Positions 6,982-34,165 of a DNA stretch of 64,000 nucleotides are shown here, piece by piece. The stretch comes from an uncultured Chitinophaga sp. (lineage in GTDB: Bacteria; Bacteroidota; Bacteroidia; Chitinophagales; Chitinophagaceae). The stretch lies in assembly GCA_964358155.1 (NCBI GenBank), contig CAYHPA010000002.1, positions 3,406 to 67,405 on the forward strand, given 5' to 3'. Numbering within the stretch: the stretch's first letter is position 1; the number at the start of each line of letters is the position of its first letter. A program made the translations under genes and the position numbers. The notes under the pieces are model-generated. The model was not told the origin of the DNA, ran no database searches, and saw only the letters and a program-made list of their open reading frames with translations.

Positions 6982-9873
6982 ATGAAACAGCTGCTGAAGC
7001 ATATTCTTATCATTTGCACTTGCTTTTGCATGCAGGGTGCCGCAGCCCAAACCACCCAAACCATTGCATACACAACAAAAGAAGGCTTGTCTTCCAATTC
7101 AGTTTACCGTACTGCCATTGATCAGCGGGGGTTTTTATGGATCGCCACCGAGAACGGCCTTGCCCGTTTTGATGGAAGGAGATTTGTAACATACACCACT
7201 GCTCAGGGACTTACGGATAATGAGATTGTTGACCTCTTTATCGATAGCAGCGGGGTTATCTGGGCCATTCCTTTTCGCCGGTCGCCCTGCTATTACAACC
7301 CGACAAAAGACAGGTTTGAAAATGAAACATCCGATCCGGAGCTGAATAAAATTGACCTGGCCAACACACACAAAGTACATGTGCTGCGCTATGGCGGTAT
7401 CGGTTTCAGCAATAACCTGCGCCAGCTCTTTATATACAAGAATGGCAAGACAGCAGTGTACAAGGGTTTTATGGCGGTAAAAACAGGTGTGATACAGAAG
7501 ATAGTGGAGTACAGCCCGGATCAGTATCTTTTTTTTGGCGAGGACACCATCCGTTATTTCAGCAACGGAAAAATAACCCGCAATATTCCCTTTGGCAAAA
7601 AACTGATTGCTGCGGAATATGTAAATGGAAAAATGTACCTCGTTCAGGATAAGAGCATCATCACCCTGCGGGTGGATGAAAAAGGAAATTTTTTGAATGA
7701 AGGCGAAAAGCTATATCCTTTTGAACTCAGGATATTTTGCAATACCGGCAAAGGCTTTGCCATCACCTCGCTCAGCGGCAATACCTACCTGCTTGATACT
7801 GCAACATTGGACATTAAAGAAAATGTGTACTCACAGGCACAGGTAAGAAATGTTGTTGAAGACAAAGAAGGGAACACCTGGCTCTCCACCATGGAAAACG
7901 GGCTGATAAAAATCCAGCAGAAAAGGATTTCTTCTTTTACCGGCGTGCCGGCCATACAGCAAAACTTCAATGCGCTGGTAAAAACAAGAAACATCATTGC
8001 CGGCACCAACAACGGAGAAGTGTTTGTTTACGATGGCTTATATGGTGTTCGCCGTATTCCGCTTACGGACGACCGGAATATTGACGCCTGGGTGCGCCGG
8101 ATAGTAAAAACCAGCAAAGGCATTTATGTTTCCACACAAACAGGCTCTTTTCTCCTGGACATGGAAGGAAACAGCATAATAGAAAAATTTATCGGATCCC
8201 AAAACAGGTCTTCCAAGACGGCCGTGTTGCTGAATGACTCTATACTCGGCCTCGGCACTCATTCACAGGCATGGAAGTATAACCTGAATACCGGAATCTA
8301 TATTGACAGTATTGCCAAAAGGATCATTTCGCTTGTTGCTGATAAGCGGGGCAAAGTGTATATCGGTTCCAATGATGGATTATACCGGTGGGACAAAGAC
8401 AGCCTGTTTGCTTTTGGTACAATACAAAACACATTCAACTACCGGGTAAATACGATGACCTGCTCTCCCGATAATATCGTGTGGGTGGGGCTTGGCTCCG
8501 ATTCATTGCTCGCAATGAAAGAAGACAAGCTGATCGCTTCGCTGCCATTGGGCGGGGCCATTCCCGGCAATATCTGCAAATCACTTTTTTGTAATAAGGC
8601 AGGTGAACTGTGGCTCGGCACCAACAAAGGATTGAACAGGATATATTACAGCTATGCAAAAAATGAATTCAGCTATACCAATACTTATTTCGGCACTGCC
8701 GACGGATTGATTGGGGAGCAGGTAAATGATATCACTTTCAATAACGACACTATTTATGTTGCCACCAGCGGGGGCATCAGCTATCTGCCCGCTAATCTTT
8801 CTTTGCCTGTGGCCGACATCGCCACTTTCATCACCCGCATCAGCATTAATGGGCAGGATGAAGAGCTGAAAAAGAACTATACAGTTCCCTTTGGAAAAAA
8901 TGATATCACTATTGAATTCTCCGGAGTTGACCTTACCGGTTTTGTTCCCTTGTTTGAATACAGCATCAATAACAGCGACTGGAAACAGACAGATAAGATA
9001 GAACTGAAAAAACTGGCGCCGGGTTCTTACAGCATTAAAATAAGGGCCATCAAAAGAGATGGTAAAGCATCAGCACAGACGGCGGTTGTGGACGTAAAAA
9101 TCAAAACACCGTTTTGGAGGAACCCCGTCTTCTGGATCATTTTTGTTTTGCTTTCGTTCAGCGCCATCATTTATTTTATCCAAAAAAGAAATAAACAAAG
9201 ACAGAAAATTGCGGTAACAAAAGTTTTGACCGAAAAAAAGATCGCCGAATTGGAGATGCAGGCATTAAAGGCGCAGATCAACCCGCATTTTGTTTTCAAT
9301 TGCCTTAATTCTATCAAAGGGTTTATCTATGATAAGAACTATGAGCAGGCAGATAAATACCTGGATAAATTTTCTGAGCTCCTCCGCAGTACGATGGACA
9401 ATGCCGATGCTTCCATTATTTCACTGGAAGAGGAAATAAAATATCTCGATACTTACCTGCAATTGGAAAAACTCCGCTTTGGCGATAAGTTTAATTATAC
9501 CATTGAGGCAAACGAAAATGTTGACACGGGGAATACATTTGTTCCGGCCATGCTGCTGCAGCCCTATGTGGAGAATGCTATCCGGCATGGCGTACGGTTC
9601 CTGGAAAATACAAAGGGAAAAATCACTATTCTTGCGCATAAAGAAAAAGACCGGCTGGTTTGTGAGATTGATGACAACGGTATCGGCAGGGAGAAAGCAG
9701 CGCAGCTAAAGAGCAGTATGCATATTGAATACCAGAGCCGCGGCATGCAGTTGAGCAGGCGCAGGGCCGAACTGTATAATATCCGTCAGCAGATCGTTGA
9801 TAAAAAAGATGAGAAAGGAAATGCAACCGGAACAACCATTGTTATCAGCATACCATTAGAATTAAAGCCATGA
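6982..9873 (+). CDS. sensor histidine kinase, LytS/YehU type, with a periplasmic two-component-regulator propeller / Y_Y_Y region
   Basis: It has a signal peptide and a repeated propeller-like N-terminal half, then a TM helix (FWIIFVLLSFSAIIYFI). QINPHFVFNCLNSI is the LytS-type His_kinase motif, and LLQPYVENAIRHG plus DDNGIG form the ATPase. Confidence 0.85.
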   Translation: MKQLLKHILIICTCFCMQGAAAQTTQTIAYTTKEGLSSNSVYRTAIDQRGFLWIATENGLARFDGRRFVTYTTAQGLTDNEIVDLFIDSSGVIWAIPFRRSPCYYNPTKDRFENETSDPELNKIDLANTHKVHVLRYGGIGFSNNLRQLFIYKNGKTAVYKGFMAVKTGVIQKIVEYSPDQYLFFGEDTIRYFSNGKITRNIPFGKKLIAAEYVNGKMYLVQDKSIITLRVDEKGNFLNEGEKLYPFELRIFCNTGKGFAITSLSGNTYLLDTATLDIKENVYSQAQVRNVVEDKEGNTWLSTMENGLIKIQQKRISSFTGVPAIQQNFNALVKTRNIIAGTNNGEVFVYDGLYGVRRIPLTDDRNIDAWVRRIVKTSKGIYVSTQTGSFLLDMEGNSIIEKFIGSQNRSSKTAVLLNDSILGLGTHSQAWKYNLNTGIYIDSIAKRIISLVADKRGKVYIGSNDGLYRWDKDSLFAFGTIQNTFNYRVNTMTCSPDNIVWVGLGSDSLLAMKEDKLIASLPLGGAIPGNICKSLFCNKAGELWLGTNKGLNRIYYSYAKNEFSYTNTYFGTADGLIGEQVNDITFNNDTIYVATSGGISYLPANLSLPVADIATFITRISINGQDEELKKNYTVPFGKNDITIEFSGVDLTGFVPLFEYSINNSDWKQTDKIELKKLAPGSYSIKIRAIKRDGKASAQTAVVDVKIKTPFWRNPVFWIIFVLLSFSAIIYFIQKRNKQRQKIAVTKVLTEKKIAELEMQALKAQINPHFVFNCLNSIKGFIYDKNYEQADKYLDKFSELLRSTMDNADASIISLEEEIKYLDTYLQLEKLRFGDKFNYTIEANENVDTGNTFVPAMLLQPYVENAIRHGVRFLENTKGKITILAHKEKDRLVCEIDDNGIGREKAAQLKSSMHIEYQSRGMQLSRRRAELYNIRQQIVDKKDEKGNATGTTIVISIPLELKP

Positions 9874-9898
9874 TATTTTTTTAGTATCCGGAAATGGA

Positions 9899-9980
9899 AC
9901 CACATAGACACATAGTAAACAATAGAAATGCACACATAGATTTTCTATGTGTAACCTATGTATCTATGTTGCTATGTGGT
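9899..9980. repeat. heptad hairpin repeat element, CACATAG type, copy 3
   Basis: ACCACATAG-ACACATAG-...-CACATAGATTTTCTATGTG-...-CTATGTGGT. It lies between the kinase stop (9873) and the response regulator start (9997). Confidence 0.8.
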
Positions 9981-9996
9981 GAAACCAACAACTAAA

Positions 9997-10761
9997 ATGA
10001 AAAACATCTCCACCATAATCATTGATGATGAGCCGAAGAATATCAAATTGCTGCAACAAATGCTGGCAGCCCATTGCCCGCAGGTGGAAGTGGTGGCCAC
10101 CGAAAGCGATGCAAAAAAAGGATTGCAACTGCTGGGAGAAAAAACACCACAGCTTTTATTCCTTGATGTGGAGATGCCGCACCTGAATGGTTTTGACCTG
10201 TTGAAAAAACTGGAACCGGTTCTGTTTGAAGTGATATTCGTAACCGCCTACAGCCATTACGCCATTAAGGCCTTTGAGCACCATGCCACGGGCTATATCA
10301 CCAAACCCATCAATGCAGAAAAGCTTATTGCAGCAGTGAATATAGCCGCCAAAAGAATTGAAGAAAAAAGCGTCAACAAAAATCTTTTTTCTTTGCTCGA
10401 ACAAACATCAAGGCAAACCACTTCTGATAAAATTCCCCTCTCTACCGGCAATGGGTTATTGTTTGTAAAGATCGCCGACATCATGTATTGCGAAAGCAGC
10501 GGCAACTACACCCATTTTTATATGAATGATGACCGGAAGATCGTTGTGTCCCGCCAATTGGGGGAATATGAAAAGCTGTTACCAGACAATAATTTTACCC
10601 GCATACATGACAAGTATATCATCAACCTGGCTTATATCAAAGAATATATCAAAGGCAGCGGCGGTGAAGTGCTGCTGGAGAACGGAAAAGAAATTCCTGT
10701 TGCCTCAAGGCGGAAAGAAGATTTTTTGGCAAGGTTTGAAAGGTGGATCAGGCGAAAATAG
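9997..10761 (+). CDS. LytR/AlgR-family response regulator (REC + LytTR DNA-binding domain)
   Basis: I chose the ATG at 9997 (MKNISTIIIDDEP). The receiver has LFLDVEMPHLNGF. The LytTR C-terminal domain has IPLSTGNGLLFVKIADIMYCESSGNYT. Confidence 0.9.
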   Translation: MKNISTIIIDDEPKNIKLLQQMLAAHCPQVEVVATESDAKKGLQLLGEKTPQLLFLDVEMPHLNGFDLLKKLEPVLFEVIFVTAYSHYAIKAFEHHATGYITKPINAEKLIAAVNIAAKRIEEKSVNKNLFSLLEQTSRQTTSDKIPLSTGNGLLFVKIADIMYCESSGNYTHFYMNDDRKIVVSRQLGEYEKLLPDNNFTRIHDKYIINLAYIKEYIKGSGGEVLLENGKEIPVASRRKEDFLARFERWIRRK

Positions 10762-12038: not shown

Positions 12039-12061
12039 TTACCGCCAACCCGGTCTGCACC

Positions 12062-12175
12062 AAGGGAAGCGGCGGCGAAGTGTTGCTGGAAAACGGAAAA
12101 GAAATACCTGTTGCCTCAAGACGTAAAGAAGATTTTTTGGCAAGGTTTGAGAAGTGGATTAGGAGAAAAGCGTAA
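12062..12175 (+). pseudogene. orphan 3' fragment (last 36 codons plus one extra codon) of a LytTR response-regulator paralogue
   Basis: It translates to KGSGGEVLLENGKEIPVASRRKEDFLARFEKWIRRKA*, matching the C-terminus of the intact gene at 10654-10761. By hand count there are 12 nt differences in 108 nt. Eleven are synonymous and one is R to K. There is no upstream coding continuation. Confidence 0.85.
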
Positions 12176-12324
12176 CGAGCAGGGCTTTGTGCAGGTGTGT
12201 GTAATAAACTGTTGAAACAAGTATTTGCCGTAGTAAAAAACAACACAATGTATCAACCAAATTATTGTTCAGCAAGACCGTAAAAAAATCAAAATTTGTT
12301 TGGTTTTTTACACAGTTCATGTTA
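12176..12324 (+). mobile_element. IS110-family insertion sequence 3' remnant, copy A: the last ~35 transposase codons plus the right end
   Basis: 12176-12283 translates to RAGLCAGVCNKLLKQVFAVVKNNTMYQPNYCSARP*, which resembles the conserved C-terminal helix of IS110-family (DEDD) transposases. About 40 nt follow that are shared with copy B and contain the near-palindrome CCGTAAAAAA...TTTTTTACACAG. Confidence 0.6.
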
Positions 12325-12567
12325 TCGGCTTCGCTTCTACGGTCGCACCCCAATAGAAACGGCACTGAAAAATTAAAGTCTTGTCGCAATGAGTGAGCAA
12401 CGATGTCAATACTTCTAAAACGTTCTATAATTCAAGTCAACCATTCCCAACGAATGTTAAACTATTTGAAAGTTATAATGCCAGAGCCAAAGAGTTTGAA
12501 AAAAGGTATAAAATACTTATCAAAAAAGGGGGATAAGTAAAGAACAGTATGAGTCATCTAAACATCT

Positions 12568-12951
12568 TCATGCGTTAGGAGTCTTGGATTTCATGTAATC
12601 GTTTACCGATTGTAACAATTTTGAACAATGCGGCACATTTCTGTTAATGTGTGTTTGTCTGTCAATGGAAAAGTCGGTATCGGTTTTATAAAGGTCTGTT
12701 AAGTGATAGTCAACATAAATAGCTAATTCTAATAACTGTGTTTTTAATTGTTGCTCGTCAAAAGAATATGTCTTTTTTAGTTGTTCCACCTCTTTGTCGT
12801 GAAGTGCAATTATTTTGTCAGGGCTTAATGCCTCTACATATCCTTTATATTTTTTAATAAGGCTTTTCTGTGACCTTATTTGTTGCCACAATATAACGCC
12901 GACAATAATGTTTGTAATTACAATTACTGTTGTTTGAATTTCTATTGTCAT
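12568..12951 (-). CDS. hypothetical small membrane-anchored protein (AT-rich orphan)
   Basis: 127 aa, with an N-terminal TM helix (VIVITNIIVGVILW) followed by a charged helical region. I recognise no family. Confidence 0.45.
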   Translation of the reverse strand: MTIEIQTTVIVITNIIVGVILWQQIRSQKSLIKKYKGYVEALSPDKIIALHDKEVEQLKKTYSFDEQQLKTQLLELAIYVDYHLTDLYKTDTDFSIDRQTHINRNVPHCSKLLQSVNDYMKSKTPNA

Positions 12952-13241
12952 GGTATAAAGTTTTAGTTATTGTCAAACCAGTAGTAAATGTGTCATCCGT
13001 AAGAATTTTGAACTGAACCTCTCTGTCTGTTTAGCATTGCCGATAACGTTCACAGCTTTGCGTTCGGCAGGGCATTTGAAAAATGTCCTGCCCGGAACTG
13101 CTGATGATTAAAGTTACAAAAGATGAGAACATATTCTGCTGTTCATCTGTGTTGGGTCAAGCCCGATATGCAGCCGATAGTAGTGCAAAAGCTGGGGCTT
13201 GACCCCGTCAGCCCCGCTGACGCAAAACCGAGTGCTGGCGG

Positions 13242-14666
13242 TTAGTTCTTCTTGTCTTGGTTAATATTGTTTGTAATAATCTTATGCGGAAAAATTGATT
13301 CACAAATTTCAAGGTCTACTAACGGGTTAACGTAAAAATATGTTGTCGCATAACTTGAACTAATTGAAGTCAAATGTTCAATAATTTCTTTGTTAAACCG
13401 TTTCTTATACTCTTTATTAAGATGCGGAAACGCTTCTTTGGTTGTAATTAATTTTTCTAATAAGTCTGTGATATTTGAATTTTCACCTGATATAAATTTT
13501 TTCCTCTCTTTGTTTATTAAGTTATATAGCTCAATTAATAATTTGTCGTGGTCATTAGAAATAGTTTGCGAGAGATGCTGTGGATTTCTATCGTTGACTT
13601 CTGAATCATTTTTTGGAGAACTTGCTTCTATAACAGAGTTATCAATGATATTGGGTATTGTTTTGGTTTTTGAAATTATTTCTGCCATTGACCTGTTTTG
13701 TTTATCAACTAACATTGTGATTGCTGAAGTGAGAATGAAAATAAAATTTGTCCACAAACCTATATGAATAATTGTAGCGTTACGCTCAGCTGTGGCAAAA
13801 GGTGGGTGACTTATATAGAATATATAGTAATAACCTTTTGAAAGCAGAAAAAGGATAATTGTCCATGTGCCAATTCCATAGTATAGGGCCTTAAGAAATG
13901 CTTGCGAAAAAGTTATTTTTTTCTCATCAAATGAAACATTTTTAATTTTAAGAAACTTCGTGCCAAATGTACCTCCTGTCACTTGCCCTATAAAATAGTA
14001 AATCGCAAAAAATAAACTGCATACTATTAATCTGGTCTTATAGACCTTATATTCCAAAAAGAGGTCAAGATTTCGGGGTGAGTTGCGACCAATATAATCG
14101 TCAATTTTAAAGCTTTGCTCCCCGTTGATTACGACTTGAACTAAAAAAATTATGCAGAGTAATATTATTCCATCAATTACAAAGGCAAATATTTTTTTAA
14201 ATGCAATAGGTTCTTTCTTTTTTAAAAAGAAGCTTCCTAATAATAAAATTGTCCCCCACGCAGCCCAAAAATGAATGCCCATAGCAGGAGTAATAAAAAT
14301 AACTCCATAAAAACGATACATATAAATGTTAGGAACCCTGATTGAATAGTTATCTAATAATAAAAAGGAGAAGTATGAAGCTAAAACAAGGAAGCCTAAT
14401 ATGCAAAAAAATGTACCAATTACTTTTTGAAAAGTCAGCCTGTTATCGTCTAGCTTAATTTTTATGTCTGAAAAGAAATCCGTCTCTTGTGCAGAAGTTG
14501 AAATATTTTCTTTGACTTTTGGTTTACTCTCTACGATTTGAGGCTCAGTAGGTAAATTTTCGGGGGGCTTAATTATTGTCTTTTGGATTTCAGGTTGTTT
14601 AGTCCCACAAAAGGAGCAAAAGACGCTGTCGTCATCTATTTGTTTACCGCAAGATTTACAAAACAT
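13242..14666 (-). CDS. zinc-ribbon / RDD-family-like polytopic membrane protein (AT-rich orphan)
   Basis: The N-terminus MFCKSCGKQIDDDSVFCSFCG is a zinc ribbon. Multiple TM helices follow, and KKIFAFVIDGIILL resembles the RDD-domain start. The C-terminal ~130 aa are soluble and Lys/Asn-rich. Confidence 0.6.
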   Translation of the reverse strand: MFCKSCGKQIDDDSVFCSFCGTKQPEIQKTIIKPPENLPTEPQIVESKPKVKENISTSAQETDFFSDIKIKLDDNRLTFQKVIGTFFCILGFLVLASYFSFLLLDNYSIRVPNIYMYRFYGVIFITPAMGIHFWAAWGTILLLGSFFLKKKEPIAFKKIFAFVIDGIILLCIIFLVQVVINGEQSFKIDDYIGRNSPRNLDLFLEYKVYKTRLIVCSLFFAIYYFIGQVTGGTFGTKFLKIKNVSFDEKKITFSQAFLKALYYGIGTWTIILFLLSKGYYYIFYISHPPFATAERNATIIHIGLWTNFIFILTSAITMLVDKQNRSMAEIISKTKTIPNIIDNSVIEASSPKNDSEVNDRNPQHLSQTISNDHDKLLIELYNLINKERKKFISGENSNITDLLEKLITTKEAFPHLNKEYKKRFNKEIIEHLTSISSSYATTYFYVNPLVDLEICESIFPHKIITNNINQDKKN

Positions 14667-15002: not shown

Positions 15003-17351
15003 ATGAAAAAACTAAAACTCCTTCTGCCGGTATTATTATTCAGCACCCTGCTCTTCGGCCAGGCCGGGCAGATCAACCAGATCAATATTGTAAGCTTTAC
15101 GGTAAAACCCGTCTTGCCCGGCGCTGTTGACAGTTGGCTTACTACCCCCGCAGCATTGATAATGGTGGCGCAAAAAGTACCCGGCCCTGTGCCATTGAGG
15201 GAACCGAGACTGGTGGTTCAGATACGGAGCGGCAGCGCTGTTATCTGCGGCAATAGTATAGCTACCGGCAAACAAATTGATCCGTTTGATGTAAGAACAT
15301 TTACAACGGCCGACCTCGTTGGCATACTTGGCAACTGTCATGAATTAAAAGAAGGCACTTATACCATCTGCGCCCAGTTCTTCAATATTGATAAGATCGC
15401 CATCAGCCGCGAAGTGTGTAAAGACTTCAGAGTGGAAGCGCCCAAATCAACCGAGTACGCACCGCCGACGTTGATAACACCGGAAGACGAAAAGAAATTT
15501 TCTGTAACGCAATTACAAGGCCCGGTAATGTTTCGCTGGACTCCGCTTGTTCCAAAACCCAGGGACCCCGTTACCTATCGCCTAAAAGTCTGGCAACTGA
15601 TGCAGGGACAAACCGGCACACAGGCCATCCGCACCAACACGCCTTTAATAACAAAAGATGTGGAAGGCGGCCTTACACAAACAACAGTAAACGCCATACT
15701 CACCGGCCCCTGCAGGCCACCTTATCTCTGCGATTTTATATGGAATGTGCAGGCGCTGACAAGAGATGGCAAACCCATTGGCAATAATAACGGAACCAGC
15801 GAACCATTTCGTTTCAGTGCTGCTTCAGAAAATAACGCCTGCCCTGCAAACTCATTGCCCGAAAATAATAAACAGTTCAGCCTCGCAGAAGCAAAACAGT
15901 CCATATTGTTTACGTGGACAAATACTGCAACACCCGGCACTGCCGCTGTTTACAGGTTAAAAGTATGGCAGCTAATGCAGGGGCAAAACGGCGCACAGGC
16001 CATGAAGACCAATACACCGGTCGTTACAAAAGAGGTAAGAAACGCAACAGAAGTAACAGTGAGTGGAATTTACACCGGCCCATGCAGACCGCCTTATCTA
16101 TGCGATTTCATCTGGGCGGTGGAAATGATGGATGCCACAGGCCGTGTAAGCTGCACCAGCGAGGGTACAATATTCCGGGTAAAAGAAGAAGAACAACATC
16201 AGCAACCGTGTCCAACTGCAATTTTCCCTGAGGACAAGAAAAAATTTACACAACGGGAAGCCAAAGCCCCGGTAACTTTTAAATGGACACATACGGCAAC
16301 ACCGGGAACAACTGCTACATATCGCCTAAAAGTATGGCAACTGATGCAGGGGCAAAATGCATCACAGGCCATGAAATCAAACAACCCCATCATCACAAGG
16401 CAAGTAAGAGATGCGGGAGAAGTGACGGTGAACGGAATTCTGACCGGCCCCTGCAGGCCGCCTTATCTCTGCGATTTTATCTGGGCCGTGGATATGATGG
16501 ATGCCGCAGGCAGAACCATCTGCACCGGAGAAGTGATGAACTATAAAATAGCCAACAATGATATTGATATACAGATTGACAGTGTTGATGTGGAATGCTG
16601 CAAAAACGGGAAGCAGAATATTTATATCAAACTGAAGAATAATCTTGCTACGCCGGTTAAGATTACACAAATCAAGATTGATAAAGTGAATGGGGTGACA
16701 GCGAATATCATCCCTTCGCCCCTTACACCGATATTGGCTGTAACTATTCCGGGTAATGGCACCCAGGTGTTTGCCGGGCAGATCAATTGTATTGATACAG
16801 CGAAAATCATCCGCTTCTTTGTAGCGGCAGAAGACCCGGTTGACAATGCCATTACCGAAACAGAAGTGGAAGCAGATACACTGCATTGCGCCTGTGATGC
16901 CTGTGATGAAAAACATTTTGTAATGAATGTGCCGGCGCCGGGGCAAATCAACACTACGGCCAGCAGCATTTCATTTAATCAGCCGATAACCATTGTTGCC
17001 ACACCACCGAAAACCGTAAAGACCATCACGGCAGAGCTGGTATATTTTGAAATGAAACCGGAAAATGATCAGTGCATTCCTTGCGATAAAGATGCAAAAC
17101 TGTACGGCCATTTTACCAACGGCACCAACAGCCAGACATGGAACGGGGCGCAATCCAGCCTGAGCATAACTATCACCACACCTGTAACACCCTGCTGCAG
17201 CACTACTTTCCGATGGTGCATCCGGTACAAAGTGGAGTTCAGCGACTGCACGGTGTGTACCAAAGTAATTTGCTATGAAAAGAAAAAAACCGGCTGCACA
17301 CCCACTGGTGGCGGCGGACAGGATGACCCAATTAAAAACCTTCCAAAATAA
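15003..17351 (+). CDS. secreted cysteine-rich repeat protein (operon gene A)
   Basis: The ATG at 15003 gives MKKLKLLLPVLLFSTLLFGQ, a signal peptide. There are three tandem ~115-120 aa repeats containing YRLKVWQLMQGQ...TGPCRPPYLCDFIW, and a C-terminal 8-Cys module. I recognise no family. Confidence 0.8.
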   Translation: MKKLKLLLPVLLFSTLLFGQAGQINQINIVSFTVKPVLPGAVDSWLTTPAALIMVAQKVPGPVPLREPRLVVQIRSGSAVICGNSIATGKQIDPFDVRTFTTADLVGILGNCHELKEGTYTICAQFFNIDKIAISREVCKDFRVEAPKSTEYAPPTLITPEDEKKFSVTQLQGPVMFRWTPLVPKPRDPVTYRLKVWQLMQGQTGTQAIRTNTPLITKDVEGGLTQTTVNAILTGPCRPPYLCDFIWNVQALTRDGKPIGNNNGTSEPFRFSAASENNACPANSLPENNKQFSLAEAKQSILFTWTNTATPGTAAVYRLKVWQLMQGQNGAQAMKTNTPVVTKEVRNATEVTVSGIYTGPCRPPYLCDFIWAVEMMDATGRVSCTSEGTIFRVKEEEQHQQPCPTAIFPEDKKKFTQREAKAPVTFKWTHTATPGTTATYRLKVWQLMQGQNASQAMKSNNPIITRQVRDAGEVTVNGILTGPCRPPYLCDFIWAVDMMDAAGRTICTGEVMNYKIANNDIDIQIDSVDVECCKNGKQNIYIKLKNNLATPVKITQIKIDKVNGVTANIIPSPLTPILAVTIPGNGTQVFAGQINCIDTAKIIRFFVAAEDPVDNAITETEVEADTLHCACDACDEKHFVMNVPAPGQINTTASSISFNQPITIVATPPKTVKTITAELVYFEMKPENDQCIPCDKDAKLYGHFTNGTNSQTWNGAQSSLSITITTPVTPCCSTTFRWCIRYKVEFSDCTVCTKVICYEKKKTGCTPTGGGGQDDPIKNLPK

Positions 17352-17357
17352 ACTGCA

Positions 17358-20300
17358 ATGAAAAAGAATACCTACTTCTTATCAATTGTGCTTTTCGTTG
17401 CAGTTCTTTTTTCTGCAACAAGCAACAAACTGTTTGCGCAAACCTGTAACCAGGTAGAGATACTCTACACCGGCAATGATTGTTTTGAAAGAGACCACCA
17501 GGATCCCGGCGGCGCCTCCGGCGGAAAAAATTGCAAGGAGATTGCTGTATGTGTGAACCAACCTTATAATTACTCCTCGTCCATCACAGGTGTTGGCTGG
17601 ACATACAACTGGACGGTAACAGGCCCGGCAAGTGTTACCATCAATCCCAACAACACAAGTCCGAACATCAGCATCGTGTGGCCGCAGATAGGTGTGTTTA
17701 CATTAACACTGACAGCCACCGATCCATCAGGCAACATATTTACTTTTTGTCTTAAAGTGAATGTGAAAGAAAAACCTAATGCCAATTTTACCATTGCGCC
17801 GAATAATGTTTGTGCCAATTCAACCATCACATTTACCGGCACCACCACCTTCTCTTCCGGGTTCATGTCTTCCTGGAATTTTGGAGATCCCCCGTCCGGC
17901 AGCAGCAACTATACCACTGTTTCTGGAAATACTGCGGTAACACATCTGTACACAGCGCCGGGAACTTATACCGTTACACTGATCACCTACAGTTTTATGA
18001 CAGTAGGCGGTGGCGGAGTTCCTAACGAACCTCCGGTAATCAAAACATGCTGCGCCGATACCATCACCAAGACTGTGACCATACTGCCGGGAACATTGCA
18101 GATTGAATGTATCAGCACCGTTTGCCCCGGCGATACTGTTAAGTACACGGCAGTTGGTTGTGGCAGCGTTACATGGCTTCCCGTTGTGGGAGGAACGATG
18201 ATTGCATCAACAGCAACCACTATCACTATTGTGTGGGGTAATGGAACAGCACAGGGCCAAATACAGGCACAATGCCCGGGCGGATGTATCGCATCAGTGC
18301 CGGTGCCGATCATTCCAACCAATCCTGTTATTGTTGGTAATACCAGCCCATGTAATACTTCAACAACATCTTATACACTGCCTGTATTACCTGGAACATT
18401 TTATACCTGGACGCTGACGAATATCAGCACGGCAACGAACTATAATAATTTACTCAACACTTATCCTGATAACAATACCGTTTGGATTAACTGGGCATCA
18501 GCGCCTCCGGGAACATATCAATTAACCATCAATCTTGACAACAAGCATATCTGTTGCAGCAGCAACGGCTCGCTTACTATTAATCCATCAGATAAATGGA
18601 CGGCTTATGCCGACCAGACAATTTGTATGGGAACGAATGCAAACCTTTCAGTTTTTCCTGTAGCAGGTACGTTTAACTGGACGGTCCTTCCGCCAAACGG
18701 CGGGGTAACTCCTCTTACCGGAACAGGGCCTACGTTCAATCCAACATTCGCCAATGCAGGCAGCTATCTTGTTGAGGTAGTGGAAACCGCTAATACTTAT
18801 TGCAATAGCGGAGCAGCTAATCCGCAGCAAATAAAAGTAACGGTGCTTAACACACCAGCGCCAGGAAATATTACCGGCCCGGCAACTGGTTGTGCAGGCT
18901 CGCAGTACACTTATACAATGAGCACAAATGCGCCAACCGGTTTTCATTATTACTGGTCCATTACCGGTGGTGCAGGCACATTTCAGCCGGGCAATCTTCC
19001 TAACGCTACCGGCAATTCTGCAACGATACTCTGGACAACGCTTCCCGGAACGATTTCGGTTGTATTGCAGGCAAATGGCTTTCCATCATGTCCGTCAACT
19101 CCGGTTACATTTACTGTAACTGCAGCAACGGTTGGCAACATTACCTGCAATCCTCCCACTCCACCTACTTGTATGAATGTGTGTGTGGATGGAACCGGAT
19201 CATATACATTAACAGGGGGCACATTACCTCCGGGAGAAGTAATTACATGGAGCATCACTCCATCCAGCCAGGGAACGATCATATCGGGCCAGGGAACAAA
19301 CAGCATTACAGTATTATGGCACGGAACTACCGGCGTAGGTCCTTGGCCTGCTACTATCAATGCAACCACATCCTGTGGTAATGCAACGCCATTAACGGGC
19401 ATCATGGTTTATCCCAAATTCGCAGTTACAATATCAGCAAGCGGTATTGATATCTGTCAGCCAGGTGGAGTTTCTCTGACAGTAAATGGCGCTCCCAGCG
19501 GATCTACAATTGTATGGTCTCCGACAAACATTAATAATATAACAACACCCGGTACTTATACCGTTACTGTAACAAAAGGCGGATGCACCGCTACAGCCAC
19601 CTATGTTGTGGAAGATCCATTTGCAATTATTCCGGTAACATGCGGAGTAGGCACCTGCAACGGCACCGCCACCAACGAAGCGCTGGGTGTAATAGTGGTA
19701 AAACCGGTTGTCGGCACATTCAGTTTTCAATGGTATTCCGGAACCTATCCATCAGGAACAGCCATAGGAGGAGCGACATCTGCCAATTACACAACAACAA
19801 CGCATGGTAATTTTTATGTAGTGGTCACTTATGGAACCTGTACTAAATATGTAAGCTTTACTGTAAAAAAAGTTTGTTGCCCCGATGTCAACAATCCGCA
19901 GATCACCAATGTTACAAGGAATAGTTGCAACAGCTATACTTTCACCGGCACCACGCCTAATCCAACCGGCGCCACCATCACCTGGAATTTTGGCGACGGC
20001 AATACAGCCACCGGTGCATCGGGAGTGCCCATCACACATGTGTATAATACAGCGGGAGTTTATTGCGTTACATTCTGTGTAGGCCCGCCTTCACCCAATC
20101 CAACAAGCTGCACGGGTAATTGTACAGCAACAACTGTTACTGTTCCTATACAGGCAAACTTCCTGTACACACTTGGCTGCAACGGATGTCTGAATGTAAC
20201 CAACACATCAACCGTTATCACCAGCAATCCATCGTATGTTACTTACTTATGGAATTTTGGCGATGGTAATACATCCACTGCACAAAATCCGGGGCCGCAT

Positions 20301-22910
20301 TGCTATGCAATCGCCGGCAACTATACTGTTACATTGACCATAACCTATAATGACGGACAGGTAAGTTGCACCAGCACGGTATCGTACAATGTAAACTATG
20401 TTCCGCTGGCTATCAGTGTTAATCCATCTCCTGTTTGTACAGGAGCGCCAACAACATTCAGTATTGCCGGTTCACCATCCTTTACTATTGTTTCGTGGAC
20501 ATGGAATTTTGGCGATGGATTTACCGCATACACTCCGTCAAGCACACATATATATAATTTGGCCGGGCCATATACTGTTACACTAACAGTTATAGACGGA
20601 CTTGGCAACACCTGCACCGCTACCAGCAACATTACTGTATTGCCCGGTATCGGCCCTTGCACTATTCTTCCCGCTTATCTATGTCCGGGAAGTCCTGCTA
20701 CATTAACAGCTCCGAATATAGTCGGCGCCACTTATTTGTGGGAATTTGAATCATCACCCAACACCTGGGTGTCAGCGCCGGGAACAAACAATGCAATAAC
20801 CTATACAACGACGGTGCCCGGTTTTTATCATGTGGTCATTACCGGAGCAAACGGTTGTCCCTGCACCAGCAATAAGGTAGAAGTAAAAGCTGCTCCAAAA
20901 CCAAAGGCTATTATTGCTGCAGCGCCATCTTCCAAACTTTGCGGACCGGGAATGGTAACATTGAGCAGCCCCAATCATTTGCCGGGATATACCTCCGACT
21001 GGTATGCGAATGGAGTTTATGGAGCGCCATTATCATCGGGAATGATGTTCATGACCAGCGTTTCAGTTACCACTGTCTTCAATCTTGTTTTATTCAATGA
21101 ATATGGTTGTTCGGATACCTGTTCGCTGACGATAACAGTGAACCCTATTCCCGCACAGCCAATCATTACATCCAGCCCGACATTGTGTGAAGGGGTGCCC
21201 ATAACACTGGCGGTTACCAACTATGCCAATAATATAACCTGGAATACCGGCGCCAATACAACCAGCATCACTGTTTTCTCAGCGGGAGTTTACACAGCCA
21301 CCTATACCGATCCGGTTACAGGTTGCAGCAGCAGTAAGAACATCAAGGTGAACAGAAGGCCGCCTACGGATCTGTTCCCGCATTTCTGCGACAGCATTCC
21401 ATGTACCTGTCGTGATAGTACAGGTAACTTCACTATTTATGCACCGCTGCCATTGATCGGCGCATATGCCAGCATCTATAATATACAATGGTTCTTTAAC
21501 GGAAATCCTGTGGGAGGAAACACGCCGACCTACACACCGGCTGTAACAGGAACCTATCATATTATATTGACGGATCCGATGACGGGTTGCAAGGACACCA
21601 GCGCCACTTATTCAATCGTTGTTCCTCCATGTGATACCTGCGATTGCAAAGAAAGCAAGTGGGGCGATATTGATTTGACAGAGGGAGAAAATATTCCCGG
21701 CAAGGCAAAAGCCAATATTGGAAACCCCGGCACCGGCAATCCCGTCGGCGGACCACAAAAGCTGAAATGCAACAGCAACTATGTATTAAAGTGTAACCAA
21801 CCTTATACCATCAATGCAAGCTATATCTGTAAGGATACACTTTGCCCGCCAAAGGTTACGTATTCACTGCAACCACCAAGTGGTTCACCGATAACAGGCA
21901 ATGCACCATTAACGTTCACACCTTCCCTAACAGGTGTATATATCCTTACACTCTATGGCTGGTGTGGAAATAAGATATGCGACAGCTGTGTTATCGATCT
22001 TACAGTGCAATGTGATCCGCTCTGTGATTGCAAAGGAAGCAAGTGGGGAGAAAAAACATACATGGTTAACAATGTGAGCAAGCCGCTCAACTGTATGAAG
22101 TCCACCGATAAGCCGATTGATGTGAAATGTGGCGACCAGATCACTATCAATGCCAATTATATGTGTGCCGGCGCCAACTGCCCCGGATCGGTAACCTATG
22201 CATTGAATGCACCTTACGGAAACAGCACTGGTAATATTTTACCGCCGCTGGTATTTAACGCTTCAATGACAGGAACCTATACTGTTACACTGTATGGCTG
22301 GTGCGGAACGACTAAATGTGACAGCTGTATAATAAGGTTTAAAACAGTATGCCCTGTAGTTGACAGCGCCTGCTGCCCATATCAGATAAAAGTGGATACA
22401 ACGAAAGTCACTACAACGTACAGCCAGCAGTATAATGCCACGGTGCTAACAGAAAACTTTACCATCAGTGGACTGGCAGCTGTACCGCTTACAGAAGTAA
22501 GGGCTGAAGTGCTGAGCTATACCATCACGGATAATTACAATAAAGAATGTATGAAGTGCCTGAACCTGCCTTACACATGGGCCAGCGTACAGTCAGCAAC
22601 CAATCTCGGCAATCCGGCAGTACCGCCGAAGATCACCATGTATAATTCAACGGTGCATCCGTTCAATCCGACGGGAGCGGGGCAGTATAAAAACCCGAGA
22701 GAGGTGGTATGGAATAACGGCAGTACATTTATTATCAATAACAATTCACAAGTGGGTATGAACTTCCTGCTGCCGCCGCCACCGGCCATTGACTGTTGTG
22801 AGTTCAAAGGAAAGATATGTGTGAAGTTCACTTTCCGCGACAACAATTGTAAAGAATGTGAGGTGATAGCCTGTTTTGAATTTGTAATTAAAAGCAAAAA
22901 GCCATTCTAA
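17358..22910 (+). CDS. giant (1850 aa) secreted PKD/Ig-like repeat protein (operon gene B)
   Basis: It has a signal peptide (LFVAVLFSATSNKLFAQ). Several PKD-type motifs are present (WNFGDGNTATG...THVYNTAGVY, WNFGDGNTSTAQ, WNFGDGFTAY), followed by many Thr/Gly/Asn-rich Ig-like segments. Two tandem Cys-rich repeats and an 8-Cys C-terminal module end the protein. There is no T9SS CTD. Confidence 0.85.
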   Translation: MKKNTYFLSIVLFVAVLFSATSNKLFAQTCNQVEILYTGNDCFERDHQDPGGASGGKNCKEIAVCVNQPYNYSSSITGVGWTYNWTVTGPASVTINPNNTSPNISIVWPQIGVFTLTLTATDPSGNIFTFCLKVNVKEKPNANFTIAPNNVCANSTITFTGTTTFSSGFMSSWNFGDPPSGSSNYTTVSGNTAVTHLYTAPGTYTVTLITYSFMTVGGGGVPNEPPVIKTCCADTITKTVTILPGTLQIECISTVCPGDTVKYTAVGCGSVTWLPVVGGTMIASTATTITIVWGNGTAQGQIQAQCPGGCIASVPVPIIPTNPVIVGNTSPCNTSTTSYTLPVLPGTFYTWTLTNISTATNYNNLLNTYPDNNTVWINWASAPPGTYQLTINLDNKHICCSSNGSLTINPSDKWTAYADQTICMGTNANLSVFPVAGTFNWTVLPPNGGVTPLTGTGPTFNPTFANAGSYLVEVVETANTYCNSGAANPQQIKVTVLNTPAPGNITGPATGCAGSQYTYTMSTNAPTGFHYYWSITGGAGTFQPGNLPNATGNSATILWTTLPGTISVVLQANGFPSCPSTPVTFTVTAATVGNITCNPPTPPTCMNVCVDGTGSYTLTGGTLPPGEVITWSITPSSQGTIISGQGTNSITVLWHGTTGVGPWPATINATTSCGNATPLTGIMVYPKFAVTISASGIDICQPGGVSLTVNGAPSGSTIVWSPTNINNITTPGTYTVTVTKGGCTATATYVVEDPFAIIPVTCGVGTCNGTATNEALGVIVVKPVVGTFSFQWYSGTYPSGTAIGGATSANYTTTTHGNFYVVVTYGTCTKYVSFTVKKVCCPDVNNPQITNVTRNSCNSYTFTGTTPNPTGATITWNFGDGNTATGASGVPITHVYNTAGVYCVTFCVGPPSPNPTSCTGNCTATTVTVPIQANFLYTLGCNGCLNVTNTSTVITSNPSYVTYLWNFGDGNTSTAQNPGPHCYAIAGNYTVTLTITYNDGQVSCTSTVSYNVNYVPLAISVNPSPVCTGAPTTFSIAGSPSFTIVSWTWNFGDGFTAYTPSSTHIYNLAGPYTVTLTVIDGLGNTCTATSNITVLPGIGPCTILPAYLCPGSPATLTAPNIVGATYLWEFESSPNTWVSAPGTNNAITYTTTVPGFYHVVITGANGCPCTSNKVEVKAAPKPKAIIAAAPSSKLCGPGMVTLSSPNHLPGYTSDWYANGVYGAPLSSGMMFMTSVSVTTVFNLVLFNEYGCSDTCSLTITVNPIPAQPIITSSPTLCEGVPITLAVTNYANNITWNTGANTTSITVFSAGVYTATYTDPVTGCSSSKNIKVNRRPPTDLFPHFCDSIPCTCRDSTGNFTIYAPLPLIGAYASIYNIQWFFNGNPVGGNTPTYTPAVTGTYHIILTDPMTGCKDTSATYSIVVPPCDTCDCKESKWGDIDLTEGENIPGKAKANIGNPGTGNPVGGPQKLKCNSNYVLKCNQPYTINASYICKDTLCPPKVTYSLQPPSGSPITGNAPLTFTPSLTGVYILTLYGWCGNKICDSCVIDLTVQCDPLCDCKGSKWGEKTYMVNNVSKPLNCMKSTDKPIDVKCGDQITINANYMCAGANCPGSVTYALNAPYGNSTGNILPPLVFNASMTGTYTVTLYGWCGTTKCDSCIIRFKTVCPVVDSACCPYQIKVDTTKVTTTYSQQYNATVLTENFTISGLAAVPLTEVRAEVLSYTITDNYNKECMKCLNLPYTWASVQSATNLGNPAVPPKITMYNSTVHPFNPTGAGQYKNPREVVWNNGSTFIINNNSQVGMNFLLPPPPAIDCCEFKGKICVKFTFRDNNCKECEVIACFEFVIKSKKPF

Positions 22911-22915
22911 GCTGT

Positions 22916-24655
22916 ATGAGAAATATTAAAAAAACATCCATTGCTGCTTTGCTTTTTTGGGGCTCTATTGTTACGGCCCATGGACAGGGCGATTCAGCAA
23001 AAAGTCAATTCAGCATCAGCGGAACCATGGGAGTTAGCTATGAGTATTACGGACTAAGCCGTAAACCAAGCGGCTGGACGGGCTTTACTCCCCGCAAACC
23101 ATGGAACCAGCTGCGGTTTATTTTTGCGCCGGACATGAAGTTTGGAAAAAACTTTTCGCTGCCCTTCAACTTCAATTTTGCGATGAAGCCCACCAACTAT
23201 GCAGGGCCTTATGCCGGAATAAACAAACAAAGCTTCGGCCAGTTCATCACCAACCCGATGAACAGTTTCGGATTGAACCCAAAATACAAATGGGCCGAAC
23301 TGCAATTGGGCACACAGTATCTTAATTATTCCAACCTTAGCACCGGTGATATCGGCGTGTTCGGCGCCGGAGTTGATCTGCGCCCCGGCACCTATATTTT
23401 TAAATTCTTTACCGGCTTATCGCAGCAGGGCATCAATTATTTGAATGGGCCGCCAACGGTGAACGGTGCTTACAAAAGAAAAAACTGGATGATGTCAATC
23501 GGTAAAGCCAGGGAAGGAAAATATGAAGCAGCCATAAATTTTGTAAAAGCCAAAGACGACAGCAGTTCAATTACAACACCACCAATCACCGTTAAGCCGC
23601 AGGAAGGATTCACCATGAGTTTTGCAGGAAAGGCTTTTTTCAAGAAAGGCTGGTATGTAAATGCTGAAGTGGCACAGTCGCTGTACACGAAGAACCTGCA
23701 GAACCCGGAAGACAGCAGCAAGCCATCATTCAAACCATTTATTGAAGGACATACTTCCACGGTGAAAGATTATGCTGCAGAAGGGGCATTTGGTAAGAAA
23801 GGACAAAACCTTGATATCGGCGCAAAAGTAAAATATATCGGAGCGGGTTTTCAAACACCGGGTTATCCCTTCATGCTGCCCGACCGGGTTGATTATACAT
23901 TGAACACAAGGTTCAATGCAGTAAAAGATAAGAACGGCGGGTATAAAATGAATGTGGTGGCCAGTGTGGGCCAGCGGATCAACAATGTGAGCAACACCAC
24001 ACTGAAGGCAAAACAATTTATCGGCACACTCAACTGGTTCACGCAGTTCAACGAACACTGGAACCTGAATGTAAGCTTCAACAACTTTGGATTTGAAACG
24101 CCCAGTGGTATCAATCCTTATGGTATTAAAAATGTAAGCAATGATTTTGGCCTGAACCCAAGTGTAACATGGGGAAACGATAATGTCATTCACCTGCTGA
24201 GCCTGAACTATAATTACAGTAAGTACACGGAGCGGGATGTGATAACGGCTGTCATTACTTCCAACAACACCCACACAGCGCTGATGACCTGGGTGCCCAC
24301 TTTTTTGAAAAAAAGTATTTCGCCCGATTTCAGCCTGATGTATTTTTATAATTCCGTGCCGGGATTCAAACTTACGCTTATCACTTTCAGTGCTGGCGCT
24401 TCTATGCAAGCGGCTAAAAAGAAAATGAACCTGCGGGCACAGCTGCAATACAATTATTCAAAGACCAGCAGTTTTACAAACAATAACAATATCATTGCCA
24501 CACTGAGTGATGACTGGAAGATTTCTGACCGGGTAACATGGAATATTTACATCAGCACCAATCATTTTAAATATGGGAACGAAATAACACCCAATAATGC
24601 GAGTTACCTGGAAAGCAATGTGCGCACCGGGTTCCTATACAGGTTTGGTAAATAG
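22916..24655 (+). CDS. predicted outer-membrane beta-barrel protein (operon gene C)
   Basis: It has a signal peptide (AALLFWGSIVTAHGQ). Aromatic-rich alternating hydrophobic stretches run throughout (FSISGTMGVSYEYYG, NVVASVGQRI, WNLNVSFNNFGF, FLYRF). The start lies 5 nt after the gene B stop. Confidence 0.65.
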   Translation: MRNIKKTSIAALLFWGSIVTAHGQGDSAKSQFSISGTMGVSYEYYGLSRKPSGWTGFTPRKPWNQLRFIFAPDMKFGKNFSLPFNFNFAMKPTNYAGPYAGINKQSFGQFITNPMNSFGLNPKYKWAELQLGTQYLNYSNLSTGDIGVFGAGVDLRPGTYIFKFFTGLSQQGINYLNGPPTVNGAYKRKNWMMSIGKAREGKYEAAINFVKAKDDSSSITTPPITVKPQEGFTMSFAGKAFFKKGWYVNAEVAQSLYTKNLQNPEDSSKPSFKPFIEGHTSTVKDYAAEGAFGKKGQNLDIGAKVKYIGAGFQTPGYPFMLPDRVDYTLNTRFNAVKDKNGGYKMNVVASVGQRINNVSNTTLKAKQFIGTLNWFTQFNEHWNLNVSFNNFGFETPSGINPYGIKNVSNDFGLNPSVTWGNDNVIHLLSLNYNYSKYTERDVITAVITSNNTHTALMTWVPTFLKKSISPDFSLMYFYNSVPGFKLTLITFSAGASMQAAKKKMNLRAQLQYNYSKTSSFTNNNNIIATLSDDWKISDRVTWNIYISTNHFKYGNEITPNNASYLESNVRTGFLYRFGK

Positions 24656-24709: not shown

Positions 24710-25711
24710 ATGAAAAAAATATTTTTGATAGCAGCCATTTGTTTTGTTGCGAAAACTTCTTTGGCGCAATTCAACACACAACTGGTGGTAATACCCAACC
24801 CGCCGGGGGCGCTGGCCGACTGGGATAATAAGACGCTTACCTATATGGTGGCCGGCGGCGGCGCAGGCCTGGTGGCACCGGTACTGATAAAAACCACTAT
24901 TAAAACCGTAAGCGGGGAAGTGGTAGCAACAAAAAATCTTGCCAAAGCAGCAACCTTTATCGCCGGCCAAAACAATCTTGTTTTGTATGTGAACGATGTG
25001 ATGCCATTGGATATAATGGTCTTTAACGGTTCTTATAAATCATCTATGGACAAAACCGGAAAACTTCCTTCCGGAAGCTATCAGCTTTGTGTGCAATTAG
25101 TGAATCCTACTGATTACCGGATAATGAGTGAAGAACGATGCAGGATATTTAACCTGGCGGCTTACCAGTTACCCATTCCTGTAATGCCTGCCAATGAAAT
25201 GATACTGGATATTGAAAAAGCACAATCCGTCATTACTTTTCGCTGGACGCCGGTAACACCCAACACCGGGATGATGCTCACCTATCGTGTCACCGTTTTT
25301 GAAATATTGCCGGGGCAAACAGCGATGCAGGCATTGCGCAGCAATCTTCCCTTGCTGGCAAAAAATATTGTGGGCACCACGCAGTATATCTGGCAGCCGC
25401 AATTGGGAATGACAGCCTGCTGCAAGGGAGACCCCGACTTTGATCTGAGAATGAAAGATACCACAAGAAAAACTGGTAACCCCGATCTGGAACCAGATGT
25501 GCTTGCCCGTGCCGGTACGGAGGAGGATGCTTATGCATTTATCTGGACCCTACAGACATTTGACAGCCAGGGGAGACCATTTGGCGATGGAAATGTGAAC
25601 GGCGATGGCATCAGCGAACCGAATATATTTTTTGTTGACCGAAGACCGCCGGACATGAGAAGATCAGGTCCGCCTGCCCGTACAACAAATTTGACAGGAA
25701 AAAAGAATTAA
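24710..25711 (+). CDS. secreted protein, short paralogue of operon gene A (operon gene D)
   Basis: It has a signal peptide (IAAICFVAKTSLAQ). Its N-terminal domain aligns by eye with gene A residues ~36-158. It carries one copy of the FRWTP...TYRVTVFEILPGQTAMQALRSN...YAFIWTLQ repeat. Confidence 0.75.
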   Translation: MKKIFLIAAICFVAKTSLAQFNTQLVVIPNPPGALADWDNKTLTYMVAGGGAGLVAPVLIKTTIKTVSGEVVATKNLAKAATFIAGQNNLVLYVNDVMPLDIMVFNGSYKSSMDKTGKLPSGSYQLCVQLVNPTDYRIMSEERCRIFNLAAYQLPIPVMPANEMILDIEKAQSVITFRWTPVTPNTGMMLTYRVTVFEILPGQTAMQALRSNLPLLAKNIVGTTQYIWQPQLGMTACCKGDPDFDLRMKDTTRKTGNPDLEPDVLARAGTEEDAYAFIWTLQTFDSQGRPFGDGNVNGDGISEPNIFFVDRRPPDMRRSGPPARTTNLTGKKN

Positions 25712-34036: not shown

Positions 34037-34165
34037 ATTGTTTTCAAAGCTCAATATTCAATCGTTTCATCACATTTCTGAATAGAATTAATTCTACAAA
34101 CCGGAGATAATTGTTGGTCTAACATTGCCCCTCTCTTTTCTACCAAACATAAAAGATAAACTAAA

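Follow-up and report, generated by a model that had tools for sequence, protein, structure and literature searches.

A 64,000-nucleotide (nt) stretch of DNA from an uncultured Chitinophaga sp., a soil or freshwater member of the Chitinophagaceae (assembly GCA_964358155.1, contig CAYHPA010000002.1, positions 3,406 to 67,405; hereafter the window) carries a cassette of four genes, designated A to D. Two of its products, A and the giant, adhesin-like B, end in the same cysteine-rich module, and they are followed directly by the gene for a putative outer-membrane beta-barrel (C) and by that for a secreted paralogue of the N-terminal part of A (D). Profile comparison and structure prediction indicate that the module represents a previously unannotated beta-sandwich domain family with two subtypes, whose linkage to the barrel across related loci is real and strong in both directions. 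With a probability of roughly 45%, the modules are disulfide-stabilised domains through which A and B pair or assemble, and a D-like domain docks the resulting complex on barrel C, a function that is read from sequence.

All four genes lie on the forward strand: A at positions 15003..17351 (782 residues, based on the open reading frame list and its translation), B at 17358..22910 (1850 residues), C at 22916..24655 (579 residues, belonging to an unannotated family) and D at 24710..25711 (333 residues, lacking the cysteine module). Consecutive genes are separated by operon-like gaps (A-B, 6 nt; B-C, 5 nt; C-D, 54 nt), and the next gene after D is RecX. The N-termini of all four proteins, read by eye, resemble signal peptides ending in ...A/G-Q, and on this basis A and B are probably secreted. 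The initial annotation had described two secreted proteins in one operon with a barrel gene next to them; the arrangement was confirmed by the spacing, and the words "secreted" and "barrel" stay interpretations of the protein sequences.

The A-type module (16887..17279, forward strand) is compact, at about 130 residues. Mapping by regular expressions placed in it a CACDAC motif, ITAEL (nt 17025-17039), CIPC about 35 residues before the CC pair, WNG (nt 17139-17147) and the cysteine block CCSTTFRWCIRYKVEFSDCTVCTKVICYE (nt 17193-17279), which reads CC-x6-C-x9-C-x2-C-x4-C-YE and is followed by a lysine-rich tail and one more conserved cysteine. The B-type module (22371..22880, forward strand) has about 170 residues, the last of which lies 10 codons before the stop. 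It contains CCPY, VRAEV (nt 22497-22511), CMKC (from nt 22548), NPREVVWNN (22710, with WNN at nt 22710-22718) and the block CCEFKGKICVKFTFRDNNCKECEVIACFE (nt 22794-22880), reading CC-x6-C-x9-C-x2-C-x4-C-FE. The B-type differs from the A-type mainly in about 45 additional residues, inserted after CxxC and ahead of the WN motif, and cysteine totals are even in both window modules (12 in A and 10 in B). In the six-frame translation of the 64-kb window, the exact CC-x6-C-x9-C-x2-C-x4-C pattern is found only twice, once in A, 25 codons ahead of its stop, and once in B, 11 codons ahead of its stop. The identically spaced eight-cysteine ending reported for the two proteins, together with the preceding (I/V)xAE(L/V) and WN(G/N) motifs, is thus present where it had been described, and its strict cysteine pattern recurs nowhere else in the window.

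Pairwise BLASTP between the two modules was only marginal (E 7e-4), and homology was therefore tested through independent profiles. Relatives were gathered by a word-indexed search, which yielded non-overlapping sets of 11 A-type and 21 B-type sequences. When the trimmed profiles were compared by hhalign, 108 columns were aligned with an E value of 2.1e-5, a probability of 77% and a score of 36.4, against 13.6 +/- 2.6 (maximum 22.2) in 100 column shuffles. In a joint MAFFT alignment, the eight cysteines and the alanine of the "AE" motif fall in invariant columns, and no conserved stretch of 7-10 residues is present. These comparisons indicate that the A and B modules are homologous.

When 1.84 billion representative proteins were searched exhaustively by HMMER with a joint profile, 647 clusters (50% identity) were recovered at E <= 1e-3 and 366 at E <= 1e-10. 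The carriers are nearly all from Bacteroidota, with one from Thermoanaerobaculia, and where the sources name them they are called "hypothetical protein". Across 179 copies of the module, conservation is 95-100% for the eight cysteines and 97% for a proline seven residues before the CC pair, which gives the signature CxxC ... P-x6-CC-x6-C-x9-C-x2-C-x4-C within a predicted beta-sandwich of about 130-200 residues; both window copies fit it. Structure prediction returned a sandwich for both modules. The AlphaFold2 model of the B-type is an all-beta sandwich with a predicted local distance difference test score (pLDDT) of 81.4 and a predicted template modelling score (pTM) of 0.81, and that of the A-type is similar and less confident (pLDDT 74.8, pTM 0.69), all-beta after an N-terminal helix. 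The module had not been recognised in the initial annotation, and no match was found in Pfam, in NCBIfam or by a profile search of PDB sequences. Foldseek searches of the PDB with both models gave generic beta-sandwiches only (pilins, MSCRAMM, cohesins and the PorA N-terminal domain) at template modelling (TM) scores of 0.45 or less, and these were not accepted as true relatives. A literature search gave nothing on the module or the cassette.

Although the usual position of the module is terminal, it is not obligatory: among the 163 listed proteins with the signature, 121 carry it within 40 residues of the end and 42 (26%) carry it internally, so the expectation that it would always be C-terminal did not hold. 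Two copies are present in 17 of the 163 listed proteins. For the B orthologues, the module lies at or near the C-terminus in 67 of 80 and is followed by 115-122 further residues in the other 13, with the barrel still directly downstream. What follows an internal copy may be a cysteine repeat of about 120 residues, TSP1, MopE, FG-GAP, a coiled-coil-like tail or the type-A C-terminal domain (CTD) of the type IX secretion system (T9SS). The latter, Por_Secre_tail, was matched in 8 of the 42 internal-module proteins; it lies in the post-module tails of P0094, P0095, P0113 and P0142 (26.6-33.4 bits, against a cut-off of 27) and also downstream of the module in P0040. Across the family, the module is combined with PKD, SdrD_B, DUF11, TSP1, FG-GAP, MopE and CBM_4_9. 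At the other extreme, minimal A proteins (P0005-7 and P0010, of 205-214 residues, and those of loci L003 and L170) consist of a signal peptide and the module alone, and in these cases B stays intact.

The genomic linkage was surveyed from both sides. A module-anchored survey, which used the B-type profile only and one genome per species, provided 80 loci, all from metagenome-assembled genomes (MAGs) of Chitinophagaceae or Chitinophagales, and a metagenome scan with the C profile provided 80 further, barrel-anchored loci. The modules, C, D, the N-terminus of A, RecX and the LytTR regulator were mapped on the loci with local hidden Markov models, which showed a conserved order of [sensor kinase]-LytTR regulator-A-B-C-D-RecX. 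All 61 species-level loci with enough flank have a reading frame for an A-type module on the upstream side of the B-type module. Barrel C was found in 62 of the 74 module-anchored loci with enough downstream sequence: the distance downstream is at most 1 kb in 55 and larger in 4, 3 loci have C on the upstream side only (order C-D-A-B), and the remaining 12 lack it. L001 was rejected as a barrel-less locus since the wider locus L059, on the same contig, has the barrel and D beyond an insertion, some 4 kb downstream. In the reverse direction, 51 of 58 barrel-anchored loci (88%) have the end of a module no more than 1.5 kb upstream of C; in about 24 of these 51, either 100-136 or about 470 residues follow the module and the barrel is still adjacent. 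The predicted co-occurrence with homologues of the 22916-24655 barrel was thus borne out. Of the two findings that had been expected to speak jointly against a sorting role, internal homologues and a lack of barrel linkage, the former was observed and the latter was not.

This linkage persists in the distant relatives L086, L168 and L169, and an association of a C-like barrel with a D-like domain was likewise found, although not universally, in the distant loci L084, L086, L168 and L169. A compact form of the cassette occurs in L086, where an A-like protein (A') of 607 residues and a B-like protein (B') of 799 residues precede the barrel and D. In L168 (GCA_036676745.1, 9001-16176), a LytTR regulator and a kinase are followed by a single protein of 1516 residues (P0116), which combines a D-like N-terminus with two modules, and then by the barrel (E 6.5e-267) and D. 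Judging from its sequence, P0116 is a fused A-B in an otherwise identical cassette. The 17 double-module proteins follow the same arrangement, the first copy aligning with the A-type profile from end to end and the second with the B-type profile for most of its length. In addition, a D-like domain is fused N-terminally to a C-like barrel in L084 (11668-14406, 912 residues) and L169 (14397-17378, 993 residues).

Six cassettes (L143, L145, L152, L157, L164 and L166), whose barrels are the most divergent (46-55% identity), keep the order A'-B'-C-D, with an A' of about 1620-1680 residues that has a D-like N-terminus and a B' of about 720 residues. In these six cassettes, neither A' nor B' contains the module, and no domain common to both was found. 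Because these cassettes are retained without the module, the invariant core is a protein with a D-like domain, the barrel and D, and the module is an addition found in most but not all versions of the cassette. As a separate observation, a lysyl-oxidase-like gene (P_proprotein and Lysyl_oxidase) lies between a B-like gene and the barrel in the distant cassettes of L085 (3265-4656) and L169 (12968-14374); the neighbouring barrel is the D-barrel fusion in L169, and in L085 only the start of the barrel is on the contig. Such a neighbour hints at covalent cross-linking of the cassette products.

Protein A starts with its signal-peptide-like N-terminus and a D-like domain (about nt 15003-15830), continues with three units of about 120 residues (FRWTP...YRLKVWQLMQGQ) and a DUF11-like segment, and ends with the A-type module. 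Its N-terminal 300 or so residues are paralogous to D (BLASTP 2e-21), and no Pfam or NCBIfam family was found above threshold in A, C or D, with fn3 appearing in A at sub-threshold level only. The unit of about 120 residues (FRWTP...YR(L/V)xV(W/F)(Q/E)...GQ...QA...N.P) occurs in three copies in A (15003-16860) and in one copy in D (24710-25711); its members gave weak matches to SusE (4 of 26) and fn3 (2 of 26) and to no other family, and neither the unit nor the D-like domain was matched in the profile search of PDB sequences. Protein B has a signal peptide, four PKD domains and one Ig_7 domain (described as "CHU_C-associated"), as identified with Pfam and NCBIfam, and the same scan found no T9SS CTD in it. 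Of its 86 cysteines, 31 lie within the last 430 residues, where two tandem cysteine repeats of about 120 residues each (CDCKxSKWG ... YGWCG..CDSC; 21639..22370, forward strand) directly precede the B-type module. This repeat, which has no Pfam family, also occurs once downstream of the module in many orthologues (such as P0032, P0037, P0039 and P0106) and forms the post-module tail of 115-122 residues in the 13 of 80 B orthologues mentioned above.

Several features of C suggest a barrel. It has a signal peptide, is free of cysteine and is rich in asparagine, glycine and aromatic residues. It contains 23 segments of alternating hydrophobicity, against 14.3 +/- 3.9 in shuffles (z of about 2.2), a weak sign of a barrel. 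Its resemblance to the barrels of the DUF481 (YdiY) type consists of the signal peptide, the absence of cysteines and weak DUF481 matches: the match of C itself (18.8 bits, below the gathering cut-off of 21.1) covers about 60 residues, and 5 of 33 homologues match with a best E value of 0.0016. C differs, however, in scoring below the gathering threshold and in being more than twice as long as DUF481 proteins. A C-terminal aromatic "beta-signal" was dropped as evidence, since the last residue is aromatic in only 11 of 141 homologues. The profile search of PDB sequences gave no match for C, and its homologues form 740 clusters, all of which are named "hypothetical". A relationship to PorP/SprF was also rejected: comparison with the PorP/SprF protein of the window gave a BLASTP E value above 1 and an hhalign probability of 0.7%, and C has no PorP_SprF match. 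D is an obligate partner of the barrel, which it immediately follows in 65 of 65 barrel-anchored loci.

According to the favoured reading, A, B, C and D would cross the inner membrane via the Sec pathway, and the cysteines would be joined in disulfides once in the periplasm. The A-type and B-type modules would then pair and join A to B, and the D-like domain, which is present in A, in D and in some barrels, would dock the assembly on barrel C at the outer membrane. The module would accordingly have an assembling or tethering role in an envelope or surface complex associated with the barrel, and would not be a cleavable C-terminal secretion tag. Pairing is favoured because a single A-type module together with a single B-type module, either in two chains or in a fused protein, was present in every module-bearing cassette examined with enough flank. 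The D-like domain is proposed as the docking part because it tracks the barrel, whether as D itself, as the N-terminus of A or in the barrel fusions. We infer the disulfides, the A:B pairing, the D-like docking, the barrel topology and the cellular location alike.

Several points weigh against this proposal. In the 12 of 74 loci mentioned above, an A-B pair is found without a barrel within 10 kb; among them, L037 shares its MAG with L030, where the cassette is complete. The barrel is also absent from L003, and the module proteins of L167 and L170 have no barrel within 9 kb. The evidence for contact between the A and B modules consists of gene co-occurrence and fusions, and the fused proteins point to co-function of two modules and not necessarily to physical pairing. 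The barrel nature and the topology of C are themselves putative. In addition, pairing by itself leaves the preference for the C-terminus (74% of members) unexplained, as well as how A and B, which have no T9SS CTD, would cross the outer membrane; the two proteins may be periplasmic.

The alternatives differ mainly in how they account for the position of the module and for its neighbours. The initial annotation had regarded the module as a sorting or anchoring signal analogous to T9SS CTDs, and in its present form this explanation holds that barrel C reads the module and exports or anchors A and B, as a T9SS-independent analogue of the pairing between type-B CTDs and PorP/SprF. Such pairing is evident in the window itself, which encodes two PKD/BNR proteins ending in CHU_C (30923-34054, reverse strand, and 34166-37315, forward strand), the second followed directly by a PorP/SprF gene (37345-38238, forward strand), the canonical neighbour of type-B cargo. 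These CHU_C domains were recognised at E 1e-20 in the same scan that found none in A or B, and the CHU_C cargo with its adjacent PorP/SprF gene therefore indicates that the organism has a T9SS with canonical cargo-barrel pairing. In work on Flavobacterium johnsoniae, adjacent PorP/SprF genes have been assigned a role for type-B CTDs. That A and B lack such a CTD in an organism so equipped, that B carries the Ig_7 domain which normally accompanies CHU_C, that linkage with the barrel is strong in both directions (62/74 and 51/58) and persists in distant relatives, and that the module lies within 40 residues of the C-terminus in 74% of family members are all in keeping with a signal of this kind. 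It is nevertheless unlikely. Further sequence follows the module in 13 of 80 B orthologues and in about half of the metagenomic loci anchored on the barrel, the barrel remaining next to it nonetheless, and 17 proteins have two copies. In P0094, P0095, P0113, P0142 and P0040 a genuine Por_Secre_tail CTD comes after the module; since the module can precede a real T9SS signal in the same chain, it is not a T9SS-type signal itself. In the A proteins reduced to a signal peptide and the module, the "tag" would have no cargo. In six cassettes with the barrel and D, both upstream proteins lack the module, and C bears no relation to PorP/SprF. A role resembling that of a T9SS CTD is therefore not upheld.

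It is rather unlikely that the module is instead a stand-alone domain with a ligand-binding, adhesive (for example to glycan or matrix) or stabilising role, recurring in surface proteins and shared by A and B through domain shuffling among adhesin-like proteins, with no part in assembly or sorting. The very large size of the family, its combination with many unrelated extracellular domains, the weak Foldseek matches to pilins, MSCRAMM adhesins and cohesins, its co-occurrence with T9SS CTDs in the manner of an ordinary passenger domain and the members without a nearby barrel (L167 and L170) would all fit such a role, which nonetheless leaves unexplained the pairing of A-type and B-type modules in 61 of 61 loci, the A-then-B order of the double-module fusions, the module as the sole retained part of minimal A proteins and the 88% barrel adjacency. 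Very improbable is a metal site (zinc, copper or Fe-S) formed, in place of disulfides, by the two CxxC pairs alone or together with the CC/C/C set, that would make the module metal-binding or redox-active. The CxxC...CxxC spacing is typical of zinc knuckles and one family member also has MopE copper-binding motifs; on the other hand, all carriers have signal peptides and extracytoplasmic partners, a setting in which cysteines are normally oxidised, the cysteines are even in number, the prediction gives a beta-sandwich and not a ribbon or knuckle, and no metal-binding family was matched in Pfam, NCBIfam or PDB sequences. Beyond these explanations of the module, C and D could form the core of an unrecognised, T9SS-independent outer-membrane device of Chitinophagaceae for export or anchoring that places giant adhesin-like proteins on the cell surface and holds or threads the A:B module pair; this is a speculative proposal and quite unlikely. 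If it were true, the cassette would represent a new envelope assembly pathway and not merely a new domain.

Comparison with known systems helps to delimit the cassette from its closest parallels. With T9SS type-B substrates (CHU_C, PF13585/TIGR04131) it shares a PKD- and Ig-rich protein with an Ig_7 domain (B), a terminal beta-sandwich and a putative barrel gene directly after it. However, the module does not match CHU_C in sequence, has roughly twice its length and eight invariant cysteines, and need not be terminal. Similarly, C has 579 residues and is not PorP/SprF-like, and the cassette includes a protein with an A-type module and D as further obligatory parts. The T9SS type-A domain (Por_Secre_tail, PF18962/TIGR04183) is likewise a C-terminal Ig-like beta-sandwich on secreted proteins of Bacteroidota, but it has no sequence match in A or B at E <= 0.01, and the extreme C-terminal position is not obligatory for the module. 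Because both occur in the same chain, the module and Por_Secre_tail are distinct and differ in function.

A beta-sandwich with a proposed joining role also recalls the cohesin-dockerin system, and Foldseek matched cohesins with TM scores of 0.38-0.45 (normalised by query length) and 0.48-0.57 (by target length). This similarity is, however, weak and generic and is accompanied by no sequence relationship, and the pairing suggested here, from co-occurrence and fusions, would be homotypic, linking two subtypes of a single domain and not a cohesin to a dockerin. With regard to two-partner secretion (TpsA/TpsB), no match to Haemagg_act, ShlB or POTRA was found in A to D. For the Slam (type XI) system, C has no DUF560 or TPR match and A and B have no lipobox cysteine after the signal peptide; the module is a predicted sandwich, whereas Slam cargo has a C-terminal beta-barrel domain.

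Bacteroidota are thought to bring large adhesins to the surface mainly through the T9SS, with a CTD and PorP/SprF, or as lipoproteins. Against this background, a giant PKD/Ig protein with a "CHU_C-associated" Ig domain and no T9SS tag is accompanied by three uncharacterised partners, in a cassette conserved in no fewer than 80 genomes of Chitinophagaceae at the species level, and neither A, B, C and D nor the cysteine module has a curated family. The domain family, the putative barrel family of 740 clusters and the gene fusions that predict binding partners are newly defined here. They offer a testable handle on how environmental Bacteroidota build a part of their surface, and hundreds of "hypothetical proteins" could receive a consistent annotation.

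Upstream of the cassette, the window encodes a Reg_prop/His_kinase sensor (6982-9873) and a LytTR response regulator (9958-10761), both on the forward strand and identified with Pfam, and this pair (6982..10761) is likely to be the regulator of the cassette. A LytTR regulator was found in 43 of 84 mapped loci, nearly always on the same strand and a few hundred bases to about 1.5 kb upstream of A, and it is also present in L001 and L168. In the window, an AAA_14/DUF4143 ATPase gene and a zinc-ribbon/RDD gene on the minus strand (10848-14666) separate the LytTR regulator from A. These genes look like an insertion because most related loci have none between the regulator and A. The GC content falls to 0.35 at 12-14 kb of the window. 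A gene for a trypsin-like serine protease is located upstream of the sensor kinase (5726-6826), and another lies in L003 (8648-9748), directly after B and in the place of the barrel.

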